Assembly: GCF_032062105.1 (NCBI RefSeq)
Contig: NW_026921094.1
Location: 1-64,000, forward strand
Source of the DNA: Saccostrea cucullata
Taxonomy: Eukaryota
Length of the DNA: 64,000 nt
Reading direction: 5' to 3'
Positions 7,381 through 64,000 of the stretch are shown here, in pieces. Made by a program: the position numbers and the translations under genes. The stretch's first letter is position 1. Each line of letters begins with the position of its first letter. The notes beneath the pieces are model-generated. The model was not told where the DNA came from, did no database searches, and worked only from the letters and a program-made list of their open reading frames with translations.

Positions 7381-8008
7381 AATAAGTTCCATTGTTTTGT
7401 AGCATCAGGTACGAATGAGTTTCTAAATAGTTCTAATCTACACCTTGGAACAATAAAATCTAGTTTGTTACGGGTCTTTTACTTATCATGAATTATGAGT
7501 GATAAGTTCAAGACGAGTCACCCGTGGGTATCCGACGATGACATATGTAATGATTTTTCGTTTGCCAAGATCTCAGCAATAAACTGTTAAAGTTAAAGCA
7601 ATAGTCCTTTCGGATGGAACCTTAAAAATCAAACATGATAAAGAACCCTTACTGTTCAGTACCGTGATGGCGAGTACAGGTTGACATTTGAAGCCCTTCC
7701 TCGGCATATGATGTTTTCTCGAATAAGATGTAAAAAATATTATGATCAGTTCTTCCTCGTAGATATGTTTTGCTCTATATTTATAATATAACTAAATACT
7801 AATATGATCAGTTTTTGGTTTTGATAAAATAGTGTCGCCATTGTGATAATTTTGTTGACATATTACAGACAGTTATTACTAACCTGTTCTTGTGACCTTG
7901 CCCTTTGGATATCACATGAATGTACTGTTATTTGATATTACATAAATTTTAATTTCATGATTTCTTTTACATAGATCGTTTAAAATTACAACACGTATAG
8001 TATCATCT

Positions 8009-9959
8009 CTAAGACACCTGGTAAACAGAGCATTGTTTGCCTAAACCTAACAACAATATCTTCTCTCCAGCTGGATGAAGTATAATGTTATAAGAATCGG
8101 TCATGTCACTATCTGCTGGATCAATGACTCTGCTCTCGACGAATCCATGTTTAAACTGTTTAAGTTTAGATGATCTATTGCAAACCAAGATGTTATCTTC
8201 TAAGTCAAATGAGAGTCCTCTAAAATTTTGATCGCAAGGACTCTTACAAATCTCTTTGTCATTCTGATCTACAATTATTACCATCCCATCTCTAAAACAA
8301 TGTGTATCTGACACCAAAGACGACGACACAAAGGGCGCATCTCCATGCTGTTTGTATGGTGAACTATGGTTGATGCAGAAGTCCAAAGAACAAATAAATC
8401 TTGTAGAACGATTGGCAGCAAATACTGCTGTTGGCCCATGAGAAATCGCCAACATGGGTTGTTTCAAGTGAATAGTTTTAAGTTTTGTAAATGTTATAGA
8501 TTTTGTGACATCAATCCGATAATGGTTGATAAAACTTTCAAAAGAAACATAAAATTCATCCATGCTCAAACCGGAGTGACAGAGGTCGTACGGTTTCTGC
8601 TGAAAAATCTCTGTGTGAACACATTCTCCAGTGGAACCACTAATGTCGAAAATCTTCAGCGACCGTTGACTTGTCTGAGATAATATTGTGATTCTGTCAC
8701 TGACAAACAAACCATAATGAGCCGTTTCTGATAAATTTTTAATCTGGGATAATTTCGTTAGGTTTACTTTCATCCAGTCTTTGTGGGTATAGACTAATGA
8801 ACTCCTTAGTAATTTTTCTACTTTCCAAGATTGTTCTTTAGACAATACCACGTCTTCAAATTCTTTTGAATTCGAAATTTGACTAAGAAAGTTCAAGTTG
8901 TCTTGTTTGTAATCTTTGGGAAAATTCCAAATTTGTAAAGACTTTAAACGACAGATGTGGTCAGACATTTGATTTTGCAACTTAAGATTCGTAATAAACA
9001 GTTGTTTTGCTGACCCACTCTTTAACACTGATTGTAGTATTGTTCTTGCCTCATGTATTGTAGTGGAAAACCGTTTCAACTCATCATAAGCTACTTCAAT
9101 GTTTCCAATGGAATCTGCATGCATCTGTTCAAATCGTTTTAACCAATTTGTATGTGAATTGTCCAAAAGTAATTTGATTTCTTCAACTTTATCTTCAGTG
9201 GTCATACATATTTCTTGCTTCTTAATATTGAGTTCGGCTTTTAGATTTAATTTTTCTAACAACATGTCTTCAACATCTTTTTCAAAAGCAATATATTTGG
9301 AAACAATGTTTTGAATGTGATCTCTGACAATTGCCAGAGCTGTATCTTCAACTGTATCTACTTTCTTGAACGATTTATGCTGTTTGACATGACAGACGCT
9401 GCAACATAGCTGCTGGTGGCCGTGGCAAAAAACATCGAGTATCTTTCCTTTGCGCAAGAGACATGGCTCCTCTATCTCGATTTCACTGTTCACCTCCTTG
9501 ATGTTCGCAAGGTTTATAATTTCATGATCCTGTAGACTTGGAACAAGTCTATGAAATGATTTACAATCTTCACAAATAGCTTCCATACATATCTTGCACC
9601 AGTGCCTCGCAGGTATCGTTTTCTCAAAACATACAGTTTTTATTTTCATCTTGCACAGGATCTACTGACAAAGTCAGAACAAGTTTGTTCATAGGTAATT
9701 CTACTGCCCATTCTTCACTTGAAATGTTCTTCCTGGGAGCGTCGACATATCTACGACAAACGGGACATTCGATCGATTTAACCGTGTTGGTTTCCTTATT
9801 TGCTGCCGTACTTGAAATGTAAGTCTGAATACACGGCTCACAGAATGTGTGATAACACGGCAAATACTTCGGTTTTCTTACCTCCTCTAGGCATATTGGA
9901 CAGTGGTATTTATTCCTTTCAATGTTAGCAACAGAGGTTTCGGTTTTTGACTCAGCCAT
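8009..9959 (-). pseudogene. TRIM (RING-Bbox-Bbox-CC-propeller), frameshifted paralog of 36391-38394
   Basis: RING CPICLEE..CYHTFCEPC..CPVC in 9624-9959. An 11-bp deletion at ~9626 relative to 38046-38060 shifts the frame. The rest is open as 8009-9649. Confidence 0.9.
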
Positions 9960-10243
9960 TCAATGGAAAGATGGATATCTGGCCAGCCCCACTGTCTCTC
10001 TTTCCGTTTAAAACTGATAACTATGGAACGTTGATGGTGTTAAAAGTAAATGGGCACGGACACGATTTTATTTTGTTGGTGTGTTTTAGTCCTGTGCGAA
10101 ACGGGAGTGAAGTAATTTATATGGCTGGACCTAAACCGAATCTGGGACCCCTGGCCTGAATTCTTTTGTCCAATTGAGATTTTGCACCGTTAAATTAGTC
10201 GTTTGCTTTACGCAGGTTGATTCTAAGTGTGTTTCTTTGTTGC

Positions 10244-10605
10244 ATCTCTTCATTTCTGTGAGACTACTTATCACTTCATCAAAAAGTTTATGCAAAATTC
10301 GAACACCACAATCAAAATGAGTTTCATTATCCTTTTTCTGTGCTGATATTTCCTTCTTTTTCTCCACAAATTCTGGTATGTCATGCTCCTTTATGTCCGC
10401 TAGGTAAGTAAAAATTGCTCCACTTCTTTAGCTAGCTACGCTAGCTAGTGTGTCCCAGTTGTAATCCTAATGGTCTGGTTTTGCAGACTTAGAGCAAATT
10501 AATCCATCACAATCTTCACAGAACATATGACAGAACGTTCTCTATGTTTGTTACAAGTTGTTCTTGAGGAGACCCAACAGGAGATTCGGGTGGGTTAGTC
10601 GCCAT
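10244..10605 (-). pseudogene. 5' fragment (B-box and start of coiled coil) of a gamma-like gene, directly upstream of the TRIM
   Basis: MATNPPESPVGSPQE start, degenerate B-box, EHDIPEFVEKK...LHKLFDEVI; truncated. Paralog at 43211-43552. Confidence 0.8.
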
Positions 10606-12297: not shown

Positions 12298-13766
12298 TTA
12301 AATGTCAAGATTAAACATATGTTTGCATCTGAAAACTTTGACCAGTCCGCTGGTGTTTCCCACCCACAGTGTAGACTTGTAGAGAGATAGTGAGGTCGGA
12401 AAATTCAGAGTCAGCAAAAATTTTACAAATGTTCCAGAAACACTCAGCAGATGTATCTTGTGATTCTTTGCGTCGGAAACAAGGATGTTACAGAGAGAGT
12501 CACACACTACGTCATATGGATCAAAATTCTCTCCCGTGTCTTTCATATTTTGTCCAGTATAGATAGATTTAATAAAACCTGATGAAGTTATAATGAACAG
12601 ACTACCGGTGGAAACTGTCCAGTTTACAACACAAATATCATGGTTACCATTCTGCATGACTCGCCGTGGGTAAATGATCGGTTGTTTGTGGTCTTGAAAC
12701 TTGTATTCGTGTTTTATCTCACCTGTCAACGTCAGCTGCAACAATGGAGGGAAACAATAACAGTAGTAACGTTCACAAGAACAGTATGGTCTGGAAAATT
12801 CGAGGTTACTGTGTATAAGTGTAACTAGCAGATCACCCGTTATTGACTGACAAATTCCAAGTGGTATTTGTTGATACTTGTTAAAGACTTTAGAAACGGA
12901 TCCCGACGTGGATAGACGATAGATGGCTTTGTTCTCATTGTCAGTAAAATATACGACGCCATCAATACAAACACATATATCAGAAATATTGAACATGAAC
13001 GATTGTTGAATCGCACCTTGTGTGTTGATTTGATGCGTGTCTTCTGAAGCTGCCTGAATGTAGCAATAATTTTCATCGAATGCTTAAAGAATTCTTGTTG
13101 GATTATTCTTATATTGAAATGATATTGTTTCATCGGCAACTAACTCTACAGACATGGTTTCCCGCAAACAATCGTGGAGTGTTTCTTTTTTATAATCCAT
13201 AAGCCATTCAGATTTCTTTATTTCGTTGTATTTCTGTCGCCACAATCGGACATTGTCCAACAAGCTGTAATCAGACATAGTGGCGTTGTTACTTTCGATA
13301 AAACCTACTTCTTCAACAAGTTGGTTTAACTTCTTCGCTATTTTTTTACCTTCTGCTTCTGCGTTCCATAGATTGTCATTCACTGTTTCCTCATTCTTCT
13401 TCTTGATTTCTAGCAGCCTATTTATGATTTGATCGTAATGTATCTGCAAAGTTTTAATGTCAGAATCATGAAGATTTTTATTTTCTTCTATCTTTTTTTT
13501 TTTAACTCCATACGTTCTGTAAATAACTTTGAGGAATCCCTGTTGATAGTGAGTTTCGATTTTTCCAGCAGTTTTTTCCTCATTTCGCCTGCTGCAGTAG
13601 CCAAAGTCTCCCAGTTATGATCTTTGTGTTCTGTTTTAGCACACTTGGAACAAATAAATTCATCACAATCCTCACAGAATATATCTATACGCACGCCGTG
13701 TTTGTCACAAGTTGGAATATGTTCTTGCGGAGAACCTTCTATGCATTGCGATTTGTTTGTCGCCAT
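12298..13766 (-). pseudogene. B-box/CC/propeller gene, subfamily beta (Cys-rich loop); disrupted
   Basis: Three consecutive ORF pieces. T11 run at 13493-13503 (T6 in paralog) and GAA>TAA at 13084. Carries the RPYCSCERYYCYCFPP loop. Confidence 0.9.
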
Positions 13767-25989: not shown

Positions 25990-26600
25990 AGAAGATTGAT
26001 ATGGATATAACGAACAGTATTCATTCTCAAAGTCCATTAAACAATACAAATTAAGAGTAGAGCAAACACGGACCTCCGAAATATCAGAGGTGGGATCAGG
26101 TGCCATGGAGGAGTGAGCATCCCCTGCCGACCGGTCACACCCGCCGTGTGCTCGTTGTCATGATCAGGAAATAACTTAAAGAATCCGTCGTCAATTCAGT
26201 GTATAAATAATGGACTAACAATTGGTATGAAAAACGTCAGTCAGCATTTGACTCAATGATAAATTGTATTTGCTGACAAGGTCATTGTATCGACCATAGA
26301 ACTTACGAAATGATGACTTTAAACGAGACTGCTGCTATTCTTGTTTCATCAATCTGCTTGTCAATAATTTACCTCGTTTAAAAAATTGTTCATACGTAGA
26401 GCATGCTCTTGCGTATCGAATCAACTGAGATATATATACTCCGTATGCAGGTGATGAAGGTATATTGCTGCATAAGTAAGGGAAGTAGACGATAGAAAAG
26501 TTAAAGTCATCACGTTTATCATATAGCTTGGTTGTTAGATTACCATTAGTGCATTTTTCAAGTAAAATATCCAAGTATGAATCAGAAGTGTCGGACTCTA
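25990..26600 (-). mobile_element. Penelope-like element (Naiad-type) 3' fragment
   Basis: LYDKRDDFNFSIV.FPYLCSNIPSSPAYGVYISQLIRYARAC plus the conserved 3' block; near-identical to 32.1-32.7 kb. Confidence 0.8.
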
Positions 26601-27323
26601 AATCTAAATCGAAATCTAAATTACGTCTGTGTCTTTTAAAATGCCTGATGACCTTTTTTTAAAACTATTTTTCTATGTCAAAAATTTCTGTTTCGTGCAA
26701 TCATATTTAGCTCACATAGTAATTTGCATTTTCCTCAATTTTGCAAACTTTTCATAAAATTTGAGAAAAAAAAACCCATGAATGAGTAGCATTTGTAATA
26801 GCTATACAATGTAACCACTTTCTCCATCATGTAGCATCTTTCTTCAATTTTCTCTGTCAGCCTGACCATTTTTACACATGTTGAGAAAGCTATATGATTT
26901 CCTGTTCGTCTCAAGGACATCAAAATTTTCTGTGCTAAATGCAGTTTAGATTTCTCATTCTGCTTCAAAATATGTTCAATTTCGAATTAGACATTTCTTT
27001 GTCGACTTAATAATAAATAAAAAAGAAAATTCCACATCTGTGAAATACTATTCCTTAAATTATTTTGGCTGAAATTGAAATTGTACTTATTACTTACAAA
27101 GGCATATCATGTAGCTTGTTTTCCTTTTATTGAAAAATAATCTACGTACGTATTTTTAATACAAAAAAAATTAGGTTAGTGAAAACGTTGTGTAGTTCCT
27201 AAATTCATATTTTTTGTACTTTATACCTTGTATACAATTAAAATGAAATATAAAAATAAGAAAAACACTAACTTGCAAGTAATACAGTTCAACTGAAATA
27301 GGTTTTCAAATTGACTTTTTTTT

Positions 27324-32096: not shown

Positions 32097-32965
32097 AAAG
32101 AAGGATATGGAAATAACAAATAGTATTCAATCTCAACGTCCATTAAACAATACACAAAATATCAGCAGAGCAAACACGGACCTCCGAAACATCAGAGGTG
32201 GGATCAGGTGCCATGGAGGAGTGAGCATCCCTTGCCAACCGGTCACACCCGCCGTGTGCTCCTTGTCATGGTTAAGAAATAATGGGAAAACCTGTCGTCA
32301 ATTCATTGTATAGATAGTGGACTAACAATTGGTATGAAAAACGTCAGTCAGCATTTCATTCAATGATAAATTGTATTTGCTGACAAGGTCATTGTATCGA
32401 CCATAGAATTTACGAAATGATGACTTTAAACGAGACTGTTGATATTCTTGTTTCATCAACTTGCTTGTCAATAGTTTACCTCGTTTAAGAAATTGTTCAT
32501 ACGTAGAGCATGCTCTTGCGTATCGAATCAACTGAGATATATATACTCCGTATGCAGGTGATGAAGGTATATTGCTGCATAAGTAAGGGAAGTTGACGAT
32601 AGAAAAGTTAAAGTCATCACGTTTATCATATAGCTTGGTTGTTAGATTACCATAAGTGTCTTTTTTAAGTAAAATATCCAAGTATGAAGCAGAAGTGTCG
32701 GACTCTGTGGTATCTTTTATCTCAAGCTCACCAGAATATATCGTGTCGACGTAGGAATGGAAATTATCATTATTAATTGACAATACGTCGTCGATATATC
32801 TAAATGTCGAGTTGAAGGCCACAGCAAGTGTTTTCTTCTTTACTCGCATAAGATTTTGCATAAATTCTGCTTCATATGAATATAAAAATAAGTCTGCTAA
32901 TAACGGAGCGCAATTTGTACCCATGGGAATTCCAATAGATTGTTGGAATACCTGGTCTCCAAAAA
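32097..32965 (-). mobile_element. Penelope-like retroelement (Naiad-type, C-terminal RT), 5'-truncated
   Basis: QQSIGIPMGTNCAPLLADLFLY, FRYIDD, YLDI and YDKRDDF motifs. The ORF ends without a C-terminal GIY-YIG. Empty site at 28031-28050. Confidence 0.85.
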
Positions 32966-32984
32966 AAACTAGTAAAGTATGAAT

Positions 32985-33250
32985 TCTAAGATACCTGGTA
33001 CACAGAAGAAGGATAAGGAGATAACGAAAGTATTCTATATCAAAGTTCATAAAACAATACAAAATAGGAGCAGAGCAAACACAGACCTCCAAAACATCAG
33101 AAGTGGGATCAGGCGCCATGTAGGAGTAATACACAGAACATTCTTTGCATAAACTTACTAACAATTATATCTTTTCTCCAGCTGGATGAAGTGTATACTA
33201 TTATCATAAGAATTATGTCAGTATCTGCAGGATCTACTTTAAGTGAATCC
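32985..33250 (-). pseudogene. TRIM 3' fragment with the same short Penelope-like insert as 28063-28340
   Basis: Collinear with 28063-28340. Confidence 0.75.
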
Positions 33251-34758: not shown

Positions 34759-36390
34759 CTAAGTAATTTGATTAAAACAATCCAATAAAAAAGACTGGAT
34801 ATAGCAAGTGTCTTCACCATAAACCTCGAGTGTACGTACTGGATTATCTCCGTTTTGAAAAAATCCTACTTCATCAGCAATGACATCAATTAACCACGTT
34901 TGTTGCAAGTCATCAAAAAAATTTCCTCCATCGTATTCTGGCGGATCTTTAATGTCTTTAATATCAGACCGTAGCTGTCTCAGAGTTTTTAAGCTGTCGA
35001 TCAGGTGGAAATCTGACATATTTCTGCCGTTGCTCTCAATTAATTCTATGGTGTCAACAAGCTGGGATTTTTTCTCGTCCATCTGAGATTTCAGAGATTT
35101 TATTTGTTTGTTTGTTTTGCTTAAGTGGTTTTTCAGTGTTATTTCATTACTCTTCTTGATTTCTGTTAGCCGGCAAATGACATTATCAAAATCTGTAAAA
35201 CTATGATATCTTTATCAAACTGAATTTTATTATCCTTTTCCTGCGTTCATATTTTCTCCTTTTTCTTTTCAAACTCCGGTATGTCCTCGTCCTTTAACTC
35301 TGTTAGGTACGTTAAGAGATCTTCCCTTCTCTGGCTAGCTACATTAGATAGCGTATCCCATTTGTGATCCTTATGCTAAGTTTTCGCACACTTGGAACAA
35401 ATGAACTCATCACAATCCTCACAGAACATATCAATTCGTTTGCTGTGTGTGTCACAAGTTGGAATGTGTTGTTGAGGAGAACCTATCGCAGATTCGGTCG
35501 CCATTACAACCTGTATTGAAGTGCCATATTCTTATAAAGATAGTTGGCGATACGATTTACTTGTTTGTTTAGATAGAATTGAAATAGCTCCCAATTTCTT
35601 ATGAATTGCAAATGAAAATGAAAATCAATAATTTGGATTTAAAACGCACATGAGGTTGTTAAAAAATCTGAATTAACAGGCGCAGACGCCTAGCTTCTGT
35701 TTATAAATCATCCATGAAAAGAATTACACTGACTACTCTCTCTCTCTCATAGATTCGTATTGAACTTAAGTATCCTTAAATACAGGAAAGACAGGAAAGG
35801 AATGTAAATGAATTGACTTTAAAAAAGCATCACTGAAATAAAGTATTGCGGGATCAAGATACATGAAGTACAAATCATGGCCAAAAATGAACACATCAAA
35901 TGTACACGTAATTTTTAACGTTATTGTAAAATCAATTAGGAGGAAGTTTTTTATGTTAACAAAAACAAAAAAAATGTTTTTAAGAATCTTAAGTTTCGTA
36001 CTTTGAATATAGCATAAAGAAATCCATCGTAAAAATTATTTGAAAATCCCTGTCTATTTCTTCACTAATTACTTAATTTGAAGTGAAAGAAAAAGAACGT
36101 AACAGAATTATGATCAGCACTTCTTCCTATCAGATCAGTTTTGTTTTATGTTCACGATATCACTTATTACTAGAATTTTGATACTAATATGATAAGGATT
36201 TTTTATTTTAACAAGATAGAGTTGCCATTGCGATTTTTTCGATGATATTTTGTAGATATTGTAGTTATCATGGTCAACACTAGCCTGTTCTTGTGGCCCA
36301 GCCCTTTTGAAGAATAAAAAAGTCATATATGATTGTGATTTTAATTTCATGATTGCATTTACATTGTTTATAACAAGTAAAGTATCATCT

Positions 36391-38394
36391 CTAAGATACC
36401 TGATAAACAGAGCATTGTTGAAATAAATCTAACAACAATATCTTCTCTCCAGCTGGATGAAGTATAATGTTATAAGAATCGTTCATGTCAGTGTCGGCTG
36501 GATCGATGTCTCTACTCTCGACGAATCCATGTTTAAACTGTTTAAGTTTAGATGATCTATTACAAACCAAGATGTTATCTTCTAAGTCAAATGAGAGTCC
36601 CCTAAATTTTTGATCGCCAGGACTCATAGAAATCTCTTTGTTATTCTGATCTACAGTTATTATCATCCCATCTCTAATAAAACTATGTGTATCTGACACC
36701 AACGACGAAGAAACGAATGGTACATCTCCGGACGGTTTGTATGGTAAACTATGCTTTATGCAGAAGTCCAAAGAACAAATAATTCTTGCAGAACGATTGG
36801 CGGCAAACACTGTTGTTGGCCCACGAGAAATCGCCAACATCTGTTGTTTTAAGTGAATAGTTCTAAGTTTTGTAAATGTTATAGATTTTGCGACATCAAT
36901 CCGATAATGATTGATAAATCTTTTAAAAGAAACATATATTTCATTCAAGCTCCAACCGGAGTGACAGAGGCCGTATGGTTTTTGCTCACACATCTCTGTG
37001 TGAACACATTCTCCTGTGGAATAACTAATGTCGTAAATCTTCAGCGACGGTGGACTTGTGTGAGATAATACTATCATCGTGTCGCTAACAAACAAGCCAT
37101 AATAAACTGTTTCTGATAATTTTTCAATCTGGGATAATTTCCTTAGGTTGACTTTCATCCAATCTTTTTGACACATTTTTTTTCTCCTTTGTAAAATATT
37201 TTCTTTGTCGCCCACGACCGGTGAACTCATTAGTATTTTCTCAACTATCCAAGATTGTTCTTTAGACAATACCACGTCTTCAAATTCTTTTGAAATGGAT
37301 ATTTGACTGAGAAAGTCCGAGTTATGTTGTTGGTAATCTTTGGGAAAGTTCCAAATTTTTAAAGACTTTAAATGGGAGATGTGGTCATTCATCTGATTTT
37401 GCAATTTCAGATTCGTAATAAATAATTGTTTAGAAGACCCACTTTTTAACACTGATTGTAGAATGGCACTTGCTTCATTCACTGTAGTGAAAAACCGCTT
37501 CAGTTCATCATAAGCTATTTCAATGTTCCCAATGGAATCTGCATGAATCTGCTCAAATTGTTTTAGCCACTTCGCATGTGCATTGTCCAATAGTGATTTG
37601 ATTTCTTCAACTTTCTCTTCAGTTTTCATACATATATCTTGCTTCTTAGTACTGAGTTCGGCTTTCAGATTCAATTTTTCTAACATCATATCTTCAACAT
37701 TCTTTCCCAAACCAATATATTTGGAAACTATGTCTTGAATGTAATCTCGGTCAACCGTGAGAGCCGTATCTTCAATTGTGTCCACATTCTTGCACGATTT
37801 ATGCTGTTTGACAAGGCATACACTACAGCATAGCTGCTGATGGTCGTGGCAAAATACATCAAGTACCTTCTCTTTGTGAAAGAGACATGTCTCCTCTATC
37901 TCGATTTCACTGTTCACTTCCTTGATGTTCGCAAGATTTGTAATTTTATGATCCTGTAGACTTGGAACAAGTCTGTGAAATGATTTGCAATCTTCACAAA
38001 TAGCTTCCATACAGATCTTGCACCAGTACCTCGCAGGTACCGTTTTCTCAGCCCGTGTGCAAAACATACAGTTTTTATTTTCATCTTGCTCAGGATCTAC
38101 TGACAAAGTCAGAACAAGTTTATTAGTAGGTAATTCCAATGCCCATTCTTCACTTGAAATGTTTTCCCTCGGAGCGTTGACACATCTGCGACAAACGGGA
38201 CATTCGATTGATTTAACTGTGTTGGTTTCCTTATGTGCTGCCGTACTTGAAATGTAAGTCTGAATGCACGGCTCGCAGAATGTGTGATAACACGGCAAAT
38301 ACTTCGGTTTTCTTACCTCCTCTAGGCATATCGGGCAGTGGCATTTATCCCTTTTAATGTTAGCAACAGGGGTCTCGGTTTTTGACTCAGCCAT
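36391..38394 (-). CDS. Intact single-exon TRIM E3 ligase-like protein (RING, two B-boxes, coiled coil, C-terminal beta-propeller), 667 aa
   Basis: C3HC4 RING, B-box1 CMFC..CKICMEAICEDCKSFH..H, B-box2 CLFH..CHDHQQLCCSVC..H..C, heptad-rich region, beta-rich C-terminus with GLSFDLEDNILV. Confidence 0.92.
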   Translation of the reverse strand: MAESKTETPVANIKRDKCHCPICLEEVRKPKYLPCYHTFCEPCIQTYISSTAAHKETNTVKSIECPVCRRCVNAPRENISSEEWALELPTNKLVLTLSVDPEQDENKNCMFCTRAEKTVPARYWCKICMEAICEDCKSFHRLVPSLQDHKITNLANIKEVNSEIEIEETCLFHKEKVLDVFCHDHQQLCCSVCLVKQHKSCKNVDTIEDTALTVDRDYIQDIVSKYIGLGKNVEDMMLEKLNLKAELSTKKQDICMKTEEKVEEIKSLLDNAHAKWLKQFEQIHADSIGNIEIAYDELKRFFTTVNEASAILQSVLKSGSSKQLFITNLKLQNQMNDHISHLKSLKIWNFPKDYQQHNSDFLSQISISKEFEDVVLSKEQSWIVEKILMSSPVVGDKENILQRRKKMCQKDWMKVNLRKLSQIEKLSETVYYGLFVSDTMIVLSHTSPPSLKIYDISYSTGECVHTEMCEQKPYGLCHSGWSLNEIYVSFKRFINHYRIDVAKSITFTKLRTIHLKQQMLAISRGPTTVFAANRSARIICSLDFCIKHSLPYKPSGDVPFVSSSLVSDTHSFIRDGMIITVDQNNKEISMSPGDQKFRGLSFDLEDNILVCNRSSKLKQFKHGFVESRDIDPADTDMNDSYNIILHPAGEKILLLDLFQQCSVYQVS

Positions 38395-38890
38395 TCAATA
38401 GAAAGATGGATATCCAGCCAGCCCAACTGTCTCTCTTTCCGTTTAAAACTGATAACTATGGAACGTTGTTGGTGTTAAAAGGAAATGGGCACGGACACGA
38501 TTTTATTTTGTTGTTGTGTTTTACTCCTGGGCGAAACGGGAGTGAAGTAATTTATATGGCTGGACCTAAACTGAATCTGAGACCCTGGCCTGAATTCTTT
38601 TGTCCAATTGATATTTTGCACCGTTAACCTGGTCGTTTGCTTTATGCAGGTTGATTCTAAGTGTTTCTTTGTTGCATCTCTTTATATTCTCCCTCACTTC
38701 GTTCGTCCGAATATAAATTAATTATACTCTTTATTCTGTATTGAAAGAATAATCAACTCATATGTATGGAATGCTGCTCGTCAGAACGTAGAACAATCAA
38801 AGAGAAAAGTGCATGTAAATAATAATAATACCTGTCTACACACACACACTATATATGCATATATATTTATTAATAGATATTCATTCATAT

Positions 38891-51539: not shown

Positions 51540-53027
51540 TTAAACGTGAAGATTAAACATATGTTTACATCTAAAAACTTTCACAAGTCCTCTTGTATTT
51601 CCCACCCACAATTTGGATTTGTACAGGGATAGTGAGGTTGGAAATTTCACTTCTCTCTCTGTCAGCAAAAACTTCAAAAATTTCCCAGAAGGACTCAGTA
51701 AATGGATCCGATGACTTTTTGCGTCGGTAATAAGGATGTTACAATAGGAGTCACATGCCACGTCATACGGATCAAAATTCTCCATCGGGTGGTAGTCAGG
51801 GTTGTCGTCTGTCAAGTTGCGTCCGCGATACACAAACTTAACCTGACCAGAAGAAGACATTACGACCAGAATACCTCTAGGAAATGCCCAGTTAACTATC
51901 ACTATGTCAGAGTTACCATTCTGGGTGAGGCGTGCTGGATAAAATAATTGAAACCCCTCTTCCGTATATGCATACCGACGTATTATATCACCTGTTAAAG
52001 TCAGGTGTTTTACAATACATGGAGAAGGATAACCGAATTCAGAATACACGGGGATTTCTAATCCTGCCATTAAGGATACTAACAAACCACCATCAAGAGA
52101 CTGACAGATTCCTAATGGTAGAAGGCCTGTATTTGCGATAACAGAAACTGATCCTGAAGGTAAGAGTTGACAAATGGTTTTATGCTCATTATCAGTAAAA
52201 AACACTTTACCATCCTTACAAACACAGACATCAAAGGGATTTATCGTGAACTTTCTTTTCTCGGTCCCTCGTATGCTAATTTGATTCACGTACTCTGATG
52301 TATGGGACTGGATATAACTAACATTATCACCACAATCCTCCAGTATACGTATGGGTTGATCTCCGTATTGAAACAATCCTACTTCATCAGCAAAAACGTC
52401 AATTGAAAAAGTTTCCTGTAACATATCAAAGATTTTTTCTCCATCGTATGGCGAAGGAAATTTAATGTCTTCTATGTCAGAGCGTAGTTGTTCGAACGTT
52501 TTATAGTTTTCCACAAGATTGTAATCGGACATGGTTCCACTGCTTTTCTCAATATGTTCTAAGATGTCAACAAGCTGGGCATTCTTGGCTAATCGAGGCT
52601 CTACACTCTTAAATTGTTCCTTTGTTTTACGCATGTTGGCTTTCAGTATTTCTTCATTGCTATTCTTGATTTTTGTAAGTCTGTTTATCACTTCATCAAA
52701 ATGTTTATGCAAAATTCCAACATCATAATTAAAATGATTTTCATCATCCCTTTTCTGTGTAAATATTTCCTCACTTTTCTCCTCAAACTCCGGTATCTCA
52801 TGCTCCTTTATGTCCGCTAGATATGTTAGAAGACCCCTCCTTCTCTGACTAGCCGCATTAGCTAGAGTTTCCCAGTTGTGATCCTTATGCTTTGATTTTG
52901 CACACTTGGAACAAATGGATTCATCACAATCTTCACAGAACATATCAATACGTTTGGTATGTTTGTCACAAGTTGGAATGTGTTCCTGGGGAGAGCCTAC
53001 AACAGATTGGGGTTTGTTGGTAGCCAT
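51540..53027 (-). CDS. Intact RING-less B-box/coiled-coil/NHL-like beta-propeller protein, 495 aa (subfamily gamma)
   Basis: B-box2 CDKH..CEDCDESICSKC..H..H, coiled coil, and NHL-like repeats (PLGIC, PARLTQNGNSDI, DPYDVACDSYCNILITD..HRIHLL, FPTSL). Confidence 0.92.
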   Translation of the reverse strand: MATNKPQSVVGSPQEHIPTCDKHTKRIDMFCEDCDESICSKCAKSKHKDHNWETLANAASQRRRGLLTYLADIKEHEIPEFEEKSEEIFTQKRDDENHFNYDVGILHKHFDEVINRLTKIKNSNEEILKANMRKTKEQFKSVEPRLAKNAQLVDILEHIEKSSGTMSDYNLVENYKTFEQLRSDIEDIKFPSPYDGEKIFDMLQETFSIDVFADEVGLFQYGDQPIRILEDCGDNVSYIQSHTSEYVNQISIRGTEKRKFTINPFDVCVCKDGKVFFTDNEHKTICQLLPSGSVSVIANTGLLPLGICQSLDGGLLVSLMAGLEIPVYSEFGYPSPCIVKHLTLTGDIIRRYAYTEEGFQLFYPARLTQNGNSDIVIVNWAFPRGILVVMSSSGQVKFVYRGRNLTDDNPDYHPMENFDPYDVACDSYCNILITDAKSHRIHLLSPSGKFLKFLLTEREVKFPTSLSLYKSKLWVGNTRGLVKVFRCKHMFNLHV

Positions 53028-53795: not shown

Positions 53796-55222
53796 TTAAC
53801 TTACGCTATTTTCGTACTTGAAAACTTTAACAAGGCCATTTTCATTTCCCACCCGAAGGTTTGATTTGAACAAAGAAATTGAGGTAGGAAAGTTTACTTC
53901 ATTTTCATTCAGTAAATACTTCAAAATTTCCCCGTCGGGACTCAGTAGATGAATTCGTTCGTTGTATCGGTCGGACACAAGAATGTAACAGAAGGAATCG
54001 CAGACCACATCAAACGGTAAGAAGTTCCACCTCAATGTCTGTCCACTGTAAATCGATCTGATATGTCCAGCAGAAGACAAAATAACAAGGTTTCCTTTAG
54101 TTCTGCTTGTCCAGTTAACAACACAGATGTCCGAGTTACCATTTTGTGCGACTTTGACTGGTAGAGTAAACAGCTTTGTTTTACCGTCAGGAGTGTACTC
54201 ATATTCTCGGATAGTGTCACCAGTTAGGGAAACGTGTCTCACCAAATGCTTGCTGTCTGAATTTGAATTCATCCATTGTGATGTGTTCTCGTTCAGTGTC
54301 ACCAGGAGACCTCCACTTCTTTGACTACATATTCCTCCTGGTAACAGTGGATCTGTTTTAAGGACAACAGAAACAGATCCTGATGGAGAAAGGCGAGCGA
54401 TGGACCTGCTATCAACATCAGTAAAGTATACACTGCTTCTACTCACACATAAGTCATTGGGTTTTATCTTGAATTCTTTCTTCTGCTGGCCTTTTTTATT
54501 GATTAGTTTGGTGTGATCAGAGTAGTGAGATTTTATATATATATCATCGTCAGTGAATGACTCCAACATTATAATAGTGCTATGTTCATACCGGAAAGAT
54601 CCTATTTCATTGGCAATGACCTCATCTGTATCAATAATCTTTCCAACCATACATTTCAGTTGCTTATCACTTATTTTTCCTCTTCTAAATCTCTTTCGCT
54701 GTTCACATCTCTTCATATCAACATCCAAGTCGGACATCAGTTCCGTCAGTTCTTTGTGGTTCTCAACGAAGCTGTAGTCTGACATGGTACCGCTGCTTTC
54801 CTCCATAAATTTTACCAGATCAAGAAGTTGTTTCTTCTTCATTTCTAACTGTGATTTCACGCGATTTATTTGTTCATTTTGTACATCGAGACTGTCTCTA
54901 AGAGTTTGTTCGTGTTTCTTCTTGATTTCTTCGAGCCTCGTTATGATTTCTTCGTGATGCCTCTGCATAAATTGTATATCCACGTCACATCGCCGTTTAC
55001 TTTCTATATTTTGTTGAGATAAATATGAAGGCCTCTCCTTATTTCACCGACTATCATCGCTAATGTTTCCCAGTTATGATTGCTGTGGTCTGATTTTGCA
55101 CACTTGGAACAAATGAATTTGTCACAATCATCACAGAACATATCTATACGTACACTGTGTTCATTACAAACCGGGATGTGTTCCTGAGGCGATCCAACGG
55201 TGTCTTTTGTATCATCAGTCAT
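53796..55222 (-). pseudogene. B-box/CC/propeller gene, subfamily epsilon; frameshifting deletion after the B-box
   Basis: ORF 55004-55222 (B-box) is out of frame with 53796-54983 (395 aa, CC and propeller). Confidence 0.82.
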
Positions 55223-61965: not shown

Positions 61966-63197
61966 TTAAATGGGAATATCAATCATATGTTTGCATCTGA
62001 ACACTTTGACCAGTCCTCTAGTATTCCCTACCCACAGTGTAGACTTGTAGAGCGATAGTGAGGTCAGATATTTCAGTGTCAGCAAAAATTTCACAAATGT
62101 TCCTAACGGACTGAGCAGATGTATCCAGTGGTTCCTTGCATCGGAAACAAGGATGTTGCAGAGAGAGTCACATACTACGTCATAAGGATCAAAAATCTCT
62201 TTTTTGTCTTCCATGATTTGTCCGTTATAGATAGATATGAAAGAACCTGGTGATGATAAAATGAACAGACTACCGCTGGAAACTGTCCAGTTTACAACAC
62301 AAATATCATGGTTACCATTCTGTATGACTCGTCGGGGGTAAGTAATTGGTGGGTCCCTATCTTTTAACTTGTATTCGTGTTTCACCTCGCGTGACAACGC
62401 CAGTTGCAACAATGGAGGTAAACAAAAGCAGTAGTAACGTCCGCAATAGTGGTCTGGACAGGAAAGTCTAAACTCAGAGGGAATCTGTGTGACTAGCAGA
62501 TCACCTATTATTGATTGACAAATTCCAAGTGGTTTTTGTGGATTTGTGTTAATGATGGTGGAAACGGATCCTGACGGGGATAGACAGCAGATGGAGTTAT
62601 TCTCATTGTCAGTAAAATATACAACACCATCATTACAAACACATACTTAAGAAATATTGAACTTAAACGTTCGTTTCCTCTCACCCTGTGTGTTGATTTG
62701 ATGCAATGTCTTCTGAAGCCATTGCCTGAATGTAGTAAGCATCTTCATCGAATGCTTCAAGAATTCTTGTTGGATTATTTTTGTATTGAAATGATGTTGT
62801 TTCATTGGCAACTAATTCAACAGAAATTGTTTTCTGCAAACAATCATTGAGAGGTATTCTTTTAAAACGCATTAGCCATTCAGATTTCTTTATTTTATTG
62901 TAGTGCTGTCGCCACAATTGGACATTGTCTAGCAAACTATAATCAGACATAGTGCCTTTGTTACTTTCGATAAAATCTACTGCATCGCGAAGTTGTTTTA
63001 ACTTCCTACCTATATCCAAAACTTCTGCATTTGCTTTATTCAGATTGTTCTTCATTGCATCTCCATCTGTCCTCTTGATTTCCGTAATCCTGTTTATGAT
63101 TTGATCACAATGTTCCTGCAAGGTTTTAACGTCAGACTCATAAAGAAATTCATATTCTCTTCTCTTGTGTGCTAATTCTACTGATTTATTGAATAAC
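61966..63197 (-). pseudogene. Beta-subfamily gene (diverged), B-box replaced by fusion to an epsilon gene
   Basis: ORFs 62681-63223 and 61966-62412; loop reads SCPDHYCGRYYCFCLPP. Confidence 0.85.
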
Positions 63198-64000
63198 TGT
63201 GTTGTGTTGTCGTTCAATATCACCAGGAGACCTCCACTTCTTTGACTACATATCCCTCCTGGTTAGAGTGGGTCTGTTCTTAGAACAACTGAAACAGATC
63301 CTGACGGAGAGAGGCAAGCGATGGACCTGTTATCAACATCAGTAAAGTATACACTACTTCTACTCACACATAAGTCATTGAGTTTTATCTTGAATTCTTT
63401 TTTTTATTGATTAGTTTGGTGTGATCAAAGGGGTGAGAATTTATATAGATATCATTGTCAGTGAATGACTCCAACATTAGAATAGTGCTATGTCCATACT
63501 GGAAAGATCCTATTTCATTGGCAATGACCTCATCTGTATCAATAATCTTTCCAACCATACATGTAATCAAGAAATGCAAATGTCTGAATCACTTGGTTAA
63601 AGCCCCATTCCACGCATTGTCTCAATGCACACATCTGCCGGTCAAATTCTGCTTCTTCTGGACTCACCCGAATTCCCTTGACCGGCCCAAGTACATACTG
63701 GTTGACGGCATAAGCTGCGTCTCCGTACAAGCAGTACGGCTCACCGTTAAGGGAGTACATGTAGCGTACAAGTTCGTCTCCAAGACCACTTTCCCTAAAA
63801 ACCGCTGCATCGTGCTGTTTACCTTCAAAAGGTCCAGCCAAATTTGCATCTCTTCATAACATCATCCAAGTCAAACATCAGTTCCGTCAGTTCTTTGTGG
63901 TTCTCAACGAAGCTGTAGTCTAACATGGTACCGCTGCTTTCCTCCATAAATTTTACTAGATCAAGAAGTAGTTTCTTCTTCATTTCTAAGTGTGATTTCA
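63198..64000 (-). pseudogene. Epsilon-subfamily gene middle part, running off the window; interrupted
   Basis: Collinear with 54277-54859. Confidence 0.85.
63563..63846 (-). mobile_element. Internal fragment of a PIF/Harbinger-type DDE transposase
   Basis: GPFEGKQHDAAVF..LYGDAAY..FDRQMCALRQCVEWGF (HD, GDxxY and RxxVE motifs); no TIRs. Confidence 0.8.

Follow-up and report, generated by a model that had tools for sequence, protein, structure and literature searches.

A cysteine-rich loop extension on the predicted top face of an oyster B-box propeller family

A tandem cluster of intronless B-box propeller genes

The window analyzed here, 64,000 nucleotides of Saccostrea cucullata DNA (contig NW_026921094.1, positions 1 to 64,000), contains a tandem cluster of intronless minus-strand genes in which a B-box (PF00643) is followed by a presumed coiled coil and, at the C-terminus, by a propeller. 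Using the intact copy as query, we found 16 family loci in the window, 15 of which are broken, while one keeps an unbroken frame. This sole intact member (51540–53027, minus strand; 495 aa) served as our reference for the architecture; its loop at the site discussed below comprises 24 aa with one cysteine.

Three of the broken copies, all on the minus strand, carry the loop under study and are called b12, b48 and b62. The b12 gene (12298–13766), an intronless B-box/presumed coiled-coil gene with a predicted six-bladed propeller, is interrupted by a frameshift in an A-run of the coiled-coil part and by an in-frame stop at 13084–13086. In b48 (48261–49710) the propeller frame (48264–49130) is open, and the breaks consist of a 20-nt deletion with frameshift in the coiled-coil part and the replacement of a B-box cysteine by arginine. 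The b62 gene (61966–63163) has no B-box: its 5′ end is lost, and it contains a 1-nt insertion and an in-frame stop (62647–62649). Errors of assembly may account for some of the frameshifts. In the public model of b48, Saccostrea cucullata LOC134259165 (P0002; 235 aa), splicing leaves the propeller within blade 4 and joins a short tail exon (48034–48062, minus strand) located in a b48-specific insertion.

The B-box profile scored 24.3 bits in b48 (cut-off 24.1), where one cysteine is changed to arginine, and 32.9 bits in the intact paralogue. The Pfam NHL match is only weak in the carriers. A RING was matched neither in the N-terminal ORF of b48 nor in the intact paralogue and was found only in a separate gene at 36391–38394. 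By inspection, there is no signal peptide, and the polar N-terminus runs straight into the B-box. These features agree with the preliminary description of the locus, which had placed the protein in the cytosol, where disulfides would be unlikely.

The RING-containing TRIM gene (36391–38394, minus strand) is an intact single ORF of 667 aa with a RING, two B-boxes and a C-terminal domain, and could be a candidate ubiquitin-ligase partner of the RING-less genes. A broken copy lies at 8009–9959 (minus strand), and both copies are contained in a duplicated block (7739–10257, similar to 36107–38690). The 5′ end of b62 adjoins a piece of another paralogue (63198–63562, 89% like 54277–54654), a rearrangement between cluster members, which is followed by a DDE_Tnp_4 transposase piece at 63539–63853. 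A tyrosine-recombinase retrotransposon-like element, presumably of the DIRS/Ngaro type, occupies 38964–43068 (minus strand) with a zinc-knuckle ORF, reverse-transcriptase pieces, a weak Dam-like methyltransferase match and an integrase-family ORF. Further reverse-transcriptase remnants lie on the minus strand at 1074–1676 (with an RVT_1 match), 26335–26658 and 32322–33164; the latter two are alike, and no Pfam match was obtained for 32322–33164.

Sequence, relatives and origin of the four-cysteine loop

On the minus strand, positions 12745–12792 of b12 read RPYCSCERYYCYCFPP, a four-cysteine motif whose cysteine core spans 12754–12783 and which lies within a 29-aa loop (12736–12822) assigned below to blade 3. 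The same protein sequence, RPYCSCERYYCYCFPP, occurs in b48 at 48708–48755 (loop 48699–48788, 30 aa), with two synonymous changes. The corresponding motif of b62, SCPDHYCGRYYCFCLPP, lies at 62413–62463 (loop 62404–62490, 29 aa). The positions and protein identity of the first two motifs, both in frame, are as the preliminary description had reported, and so is the divergence of the residues upstream of the motif between b12 and b48. That description had also credited the third copy with four cysteines, which is correct; the protegrin spacing C-x-C-x4-C-x-C, present in b12 and b48, is absent there. The spacing in b62 is C-x4-C-x4-C-x-C, and only the last three cysteines are in register with the other copies: the first has gone from its position, and a cysteine stands three codons further upstream. 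In all three copies the last cysteine is followed by F/L-P-P-L-L-Q. In each of the three copies the motif is read in phase with the conserved strands on either side of it, so an artefact or a wrong reading frame is rejected. A six-frame translation of the window contains the exact C-x-C-x4-C-x-C pattern two times, compared with once in 20 shuffled windows (mean 0.05). At the 1.4% cysteine frequency of homologous loops, at least four cysteines in a 29-residue loop have a probability of about 7e-4, with the three copies counted as a single event.

To place the loop among its relatives, we assembled 206 proteins, dropped 81 long repeat proteins and two b48 sequences, and aligned the remaining 123 with seven copies from the window. 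Both loop anchors were present in 122 of the 130 rows, 119 of which are non-carriers (one of the proteins, P0004, duplicates a window copy). Non-carrier loops measure 14–27 aa with a mode of 22 (47 of 119) and contain no cysteine in 92 cases, one in 21 and two in 6. The loops of b12, b48 and b62, at 29, 30 and 29 aa, have four cysteines each. The knob had previously been called an insertion; the loop is indeed longer, yet that term overstates the case, since its sequence has been replaced and the net lengthening is 7–8 residues. In a quick tree of 42 chosen rows of the 130, built with the loop removed, the carriers form one clade of three (SH-aLRT 100) within a group comprising three window paralogues and a S. 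echinata protein, in agreement with the earlier assignment of the motif to one subfamily. The nearest relatives of b48 are Saccostrea proteins of about 490 aa.

Protein databases yielded no intact carrier. A loop-focused search returned four candidates, a single one of which, the shortened public model of b48, carries the loop. The same model was the only motif-bearing sequence among 61 matches to the whole ORF (the other 60 were without the motif, the next best at 49% identity) and among 2827 candidates of a profile built from the three loops, and the best 150 representatives in a search of representative proteins contained no further carrier (next best 56–57% identity). These protein searches have limited sensitivity and would miss unannotated genomic copies. 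Formally, the loop was found in broken genes only, an outcome that the preliminary description had regarded as speaking against a functional knob. As a test this is weak, because 15 of the 16 family loci in the window are broken and the carriers evolved under purifying selection (see below). Searches of the open-licence literature listed no paper on this oyster family or its loops; PMC8195603 deals with other bivalve expansions. The loop is real and unusual within its family, and it is confined to three paralogues, all of them broken.

The loop exceeds the modal length by seven codons. Its two Y-C-x-C units, in b12 and b48, agree at 11 of 12 nt when compared at a lag of 21 nt; at least as many matches were seen in 3 of 361 paralogue windows and in 10 and 8 of 2000 codon shuffles. 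This test was chosen after the repeat had been seen, and the null windows overlap. The repeat is absent from b62 (7 of 12). These sequences are most simply, and probably, explained by a seven-codon (21-nt) tandem duplication that took place in the common ancestor and has since become blurred in b62, with the ancestral state unpolarized. Derivation of the cysteine units as frame-shifted copies of the ancestral C-L/I-V strand was rejected: of 40 comparisons, only one ranked within the top 5% against 429 null windows, and that one lay away from this strand. A compensated 5-nt shift as the difference in b62 appeared under only one of four gap settings. The first half of the b12 loop (12796–12819, minus strand) has been replaced relative to b48 and b62; its 8 codons carry about 9 replacement changes (at about 19 replacement sites) and 3 silent ones against b48. 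No donor for this segment was found in the window (best other match 17 of 24 nt), and an inverted origin was rejected, its score being reached by 441 of 1000 shuffles.

Predicted position and selective constraint

The AlphaFold2 model of the b48 propeller (66 aligned sequences) is all-beta, with a pLDDT of 89 and a pTM of 0.88, and its strand pattern is read as six predicted four-stranded blades. The best Foldseek rows were the NHL domains of TRIM2 and TRIM3 (E ~1e-12, TM 0.70–0.74, 14–16% identity). In the model the loop connects E90–96 and E120–123, which are strands two and three of blade 3. The top surface of NHL propellers, with which Brat binds RNA, is described as being built from the b-c and d-a loops (PMC4015489). 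The motif loop is accordingly predicted to be the blade-3 b-c loop, located on the top (ligand) face. As to the positively charged, RNA-binding top face of TRIM-NHL propellers, the top loops of b48 contain 10 K/R against 8 D/E, a residue count that suggests a nearly neutral surface.

Among 50 relatives with at least 38% identity, mean entropy was 2.24 bits in top-face loops and 1.45 bits in bottom loops (11 versus 11 segments, p=0.003). The blade-3 b-c loop itself, at 2.07 bits, does not rank first in sequence variability, yet it varies in length. With the top-face position in the model, this bears out the earlier view of a variable surface loop, here on the predicted ligand face. Having mostly broken loci and, across Saccostrea paralogues, top-face loops as the most variable part of its propeller, the oyster family looks like a diversifying receptor set.

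Two structural pictures of the motif emerged. Within the domain model the loop is coil (pLDDT 51–63) and lacks stalk strands. Folded alone (33 aa, three sequences), it forms a helix and a hairpin (pLDDT 75–77, pTM 0.27) whose strands, residues 15–18 and 23–26, place the two CxC units on facing strands across a four-residue turn. Of the hairpin knob proposed earlier, the propensity of the isolated peptide stands, while a folded knob in the domain is not supported by the model. The isolated model gave 0 of 29 Foldseek rows in the PDB at E≤0.001 and no chain at Z≥2 among 48161, both weak tests at 33 residues. An ESM Atlas search with residues 170–225 returned only mollusc NHL clusters (0.82–0.84), which we treat as a lead.

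Over about 340 codons, dN/dS of the carrier pairs was 0.36 (0.22–0.58), 0.46 (0.33–0.67) and 0.50 (0.35–0.73), and all three pairs showed an excess of third-position changes (41/77, 67/149 and 66/146; p 0.0007–0.01). When neutral evolution was simulated with transition bias, 0–2 of 300 runs attained the observed ratio for b12/b48 and 2–15 of 300 for b48/b62, and the contrast of 0-fold and 4-fold sites in the latter pair was borderline (p=0.057). Between b12 and b48, the 3′ flank differs at 8.8% of sites, below the 13.3% at four-fold sites, and the 5′ flank at 17.6%. On balance, the carriers evolved under purifying selection as whole genes. Because the loop is common to all three constrained carriers, it existed in working genes. 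Since the loop arose, the carriers have been broken, like most of the cluster, which is a case of birth-and-death turnover.

Selection on the motif itself is less clear. Its 15 codons show no replacement and two silent changes between b12 and b48, a conservation that does not stand out significantly from the remainder of the gene (Fisher p=0.26). It does stand out from the fast-changing segment just before it (p=1e-5), which may represent a single replacement event. For three cysteine codons to survive, the probability is about 0.13 if evolution was neutral and 0.35 if the replacement rate of the gene applied. Two of the three shared cysteine codons are silently changed in b62, which still has four cysteines. 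The loss of one cysteine in b62 and the presence of another three codons upstream may hint at selection for cysteine, and are suggestive only.

Interpretation and comparison with known systems

We tentatively favor, at slightly below even probability, a lineage-private and likely metal-clamped extension of a ligand loop on the top face of the propeller in the three-copy clade. Such an extension would have begun with the 21-nt tandem duplication of a Y-C-x-C unit that lengthened the loop by 7–8 residues. To judge from the B-box and the polar N-terminus, the protein would reside in the cytosol, where it may dimerize through the presumed coiled coil and present two propellers. Top loops would set specificity, with the loop possibly in contact with the ligand; the duplicated unit would add a hairpin and likely altered what the propeller bound. 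A metal ion (Zn or Cu), and not disulfides, would probably hold the four thiols together.

Nearly as likely is a near-neutral accident, to which we assign a probability well over one third: slippage in AT-rich DNA would have doubled a Cys/Tyr unit in a tolerant loop, leaving the cysteines without a role of their own, while selection on the genes had other causes. Loop length and sequence do vary freely in the family, and b12 and b48 have diverged at 9 of about 19 replacement sites in the half of the loop that precedes the motif. Cysteine conservation lacks significance, the first cysteine is out of register in b62, the lineage is nowhere found intact in protein searches, and the loop is disordered in the domain model. 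Against an accident stand the absence of replacements in 15 motif codons beside the fast-changing segment (p=1e-5; perhaps a single replacement event) and, in b62, the retention of four cysteines after one was lost, together with silent changes in two cysteine codons. A different and rather improbable role for the cysteine cluster would be S-acylation (palmitoylation) or a redox patch, making the loop a membrane tether or an oxidative-stress switch. Acylated cysteine clusters may resemble the cysteine pattern of the loop, in which clustered cysteines stand among aromatic residues in an exposed flexible segment; the basic residues that precede the motif in b48 fit this role as well, but are absent in b12.

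Two further readings, each very improbable, start from the spacing of the cysteines. The loop could be a Mac1-like Cu(I)-sensing module that switches the protein with cellular copper; the x4 form of the REP spacing occurs in S. cerevisiae. REP motifs begin CxC-x3-CxC in A. nidulans Mac1 (C339, C341, C345 and C347; PMC6354809) and bind Cu(I) in yeast. The oyster loop shares this CxC-x3/4-CxC start and the intracellular setting of Mac1 and Cuf1, but it is part of an unrelated protein. The REP motif is described as comprising five cysteines and one histidine (PMC6354809, PMC6514546, PMC2396432), and the Cu4 clusters as using six ligands (PMC2396432), whereas the fifth cysteine and the histidine (x2-C-x2-H) are missing in all three oyster copies.

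The other of these readings, a disulfide-laddered hairpin as in protegrin or a disulfide knob as in ultralong CDR-H3, would account for the spacing in b12 and b48 and for the predicted hairpin of the isolated peptide with its facing CxC units. A symmetric ladder, as first proposed, fits these two copies and fails in b62, where the spacing is asymmetric. Protegrins are described as cut from secreted cathelin precursors (PMC4410394), and no cathelin match was found in the family proteins searched. Protegrin-1 is secreted, processed and disulfide-bonded with a reported net charge of +7 (PMC2956088), whereas the oyster motif, with a net charge of about +1, is internal to a likely cytosolic protein whose polar N-terminus leads into a B-box. 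The loop had no match among PDB sequences at E≤10, consistent with the earlier view that the resemblance is convergence rather than kinship, and no fold match was obtained. Bovine ultralong H3 loops are reported to carry knobs on stalks and to reach 70 aa (PMC5994613). These structures, with stalk and disulfide knob, are somatically diversified and secreted; the oyster loop is germline-encoded, gains only 7–8 residues net and has no stalk, so that the likeness drawn in the preliminary description reduces to the idea of a cysteine-rich addition to a binding loop. Both the protegrin and the bovine-knob likenesses are superficial.

If the metal-clamped finger of the favored reading was functional, it would show that an expanded invertebrate TRIM-like family can gain a new structural element on its binding face through a small duplication, and the top face would be the place to seek ligands of these uncharacterized proteins. 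An unlikely extension of this reading is that a family of cytosolic propeller receptors varies its binding surface with metal-clamped beta-hairpin fingers that grow from a single loop, originate in a seven-codon duplication, retain four thiols even after one has been lost and replaced, and are still intact in other Saccostrea haplotypes; if true, they would be a germline, intracellular counterpart of the disulfide knobs on antibodies. A neutral loop would be nothing out of the ordinary, a by-product of the turnover of a tandem cluster in decay. The more general result holds either way: nowhere does the family vary more than in its top-face loops.

In architecture, the oyster genes resemble the TRIM-NHL proteins (TRIM2, TRIM3, TRIM71/LIN-41, Brat and Thin), which share the B-box, a helical region and a six-bladed NHL-type propeller with a ligand-binding top face. 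The oyster genes differ in lacking a RING, which is also absent from Brat, and a Pfam filamin match, and in their identity of only 12–16%. They are intronless, tandemly expanded and mostly broken, with an apparently nearly neutral top face in b48 and, in the three carriers, four cysteines in one loop. The three carriers nest inside an oyster B-box/NHL-like expansion of the same architecture, whose members measure about 490 aa in Saccostrea and about 554 aa in Magallana/Crassostrea, where they are labelled TRIM3-like or TRIM71-like; none of the 119 other loops exceeds 27 aa or two cysteines.

For the mode of change, the closest likeness is to TRIM5alpha and the fish finTRIMs. Duplications in the v1 loop of TRIM5alpha are described as giving new specificities, including a natural 20-codon duplication in the African green monkey (PMC12230231), and the loops of clustered finTRIM genes as diversifying (PMC2657112). 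These proteins use a B30.2/SPRY domain instead of a propeller and possess a RING, and a ligand and positive selection have been shown for them only. By analogy, the oyster family may have an immune role: both systems consist of clustered, fast-turning-over TRIM-type genes with variable C-terminal ligand loops.
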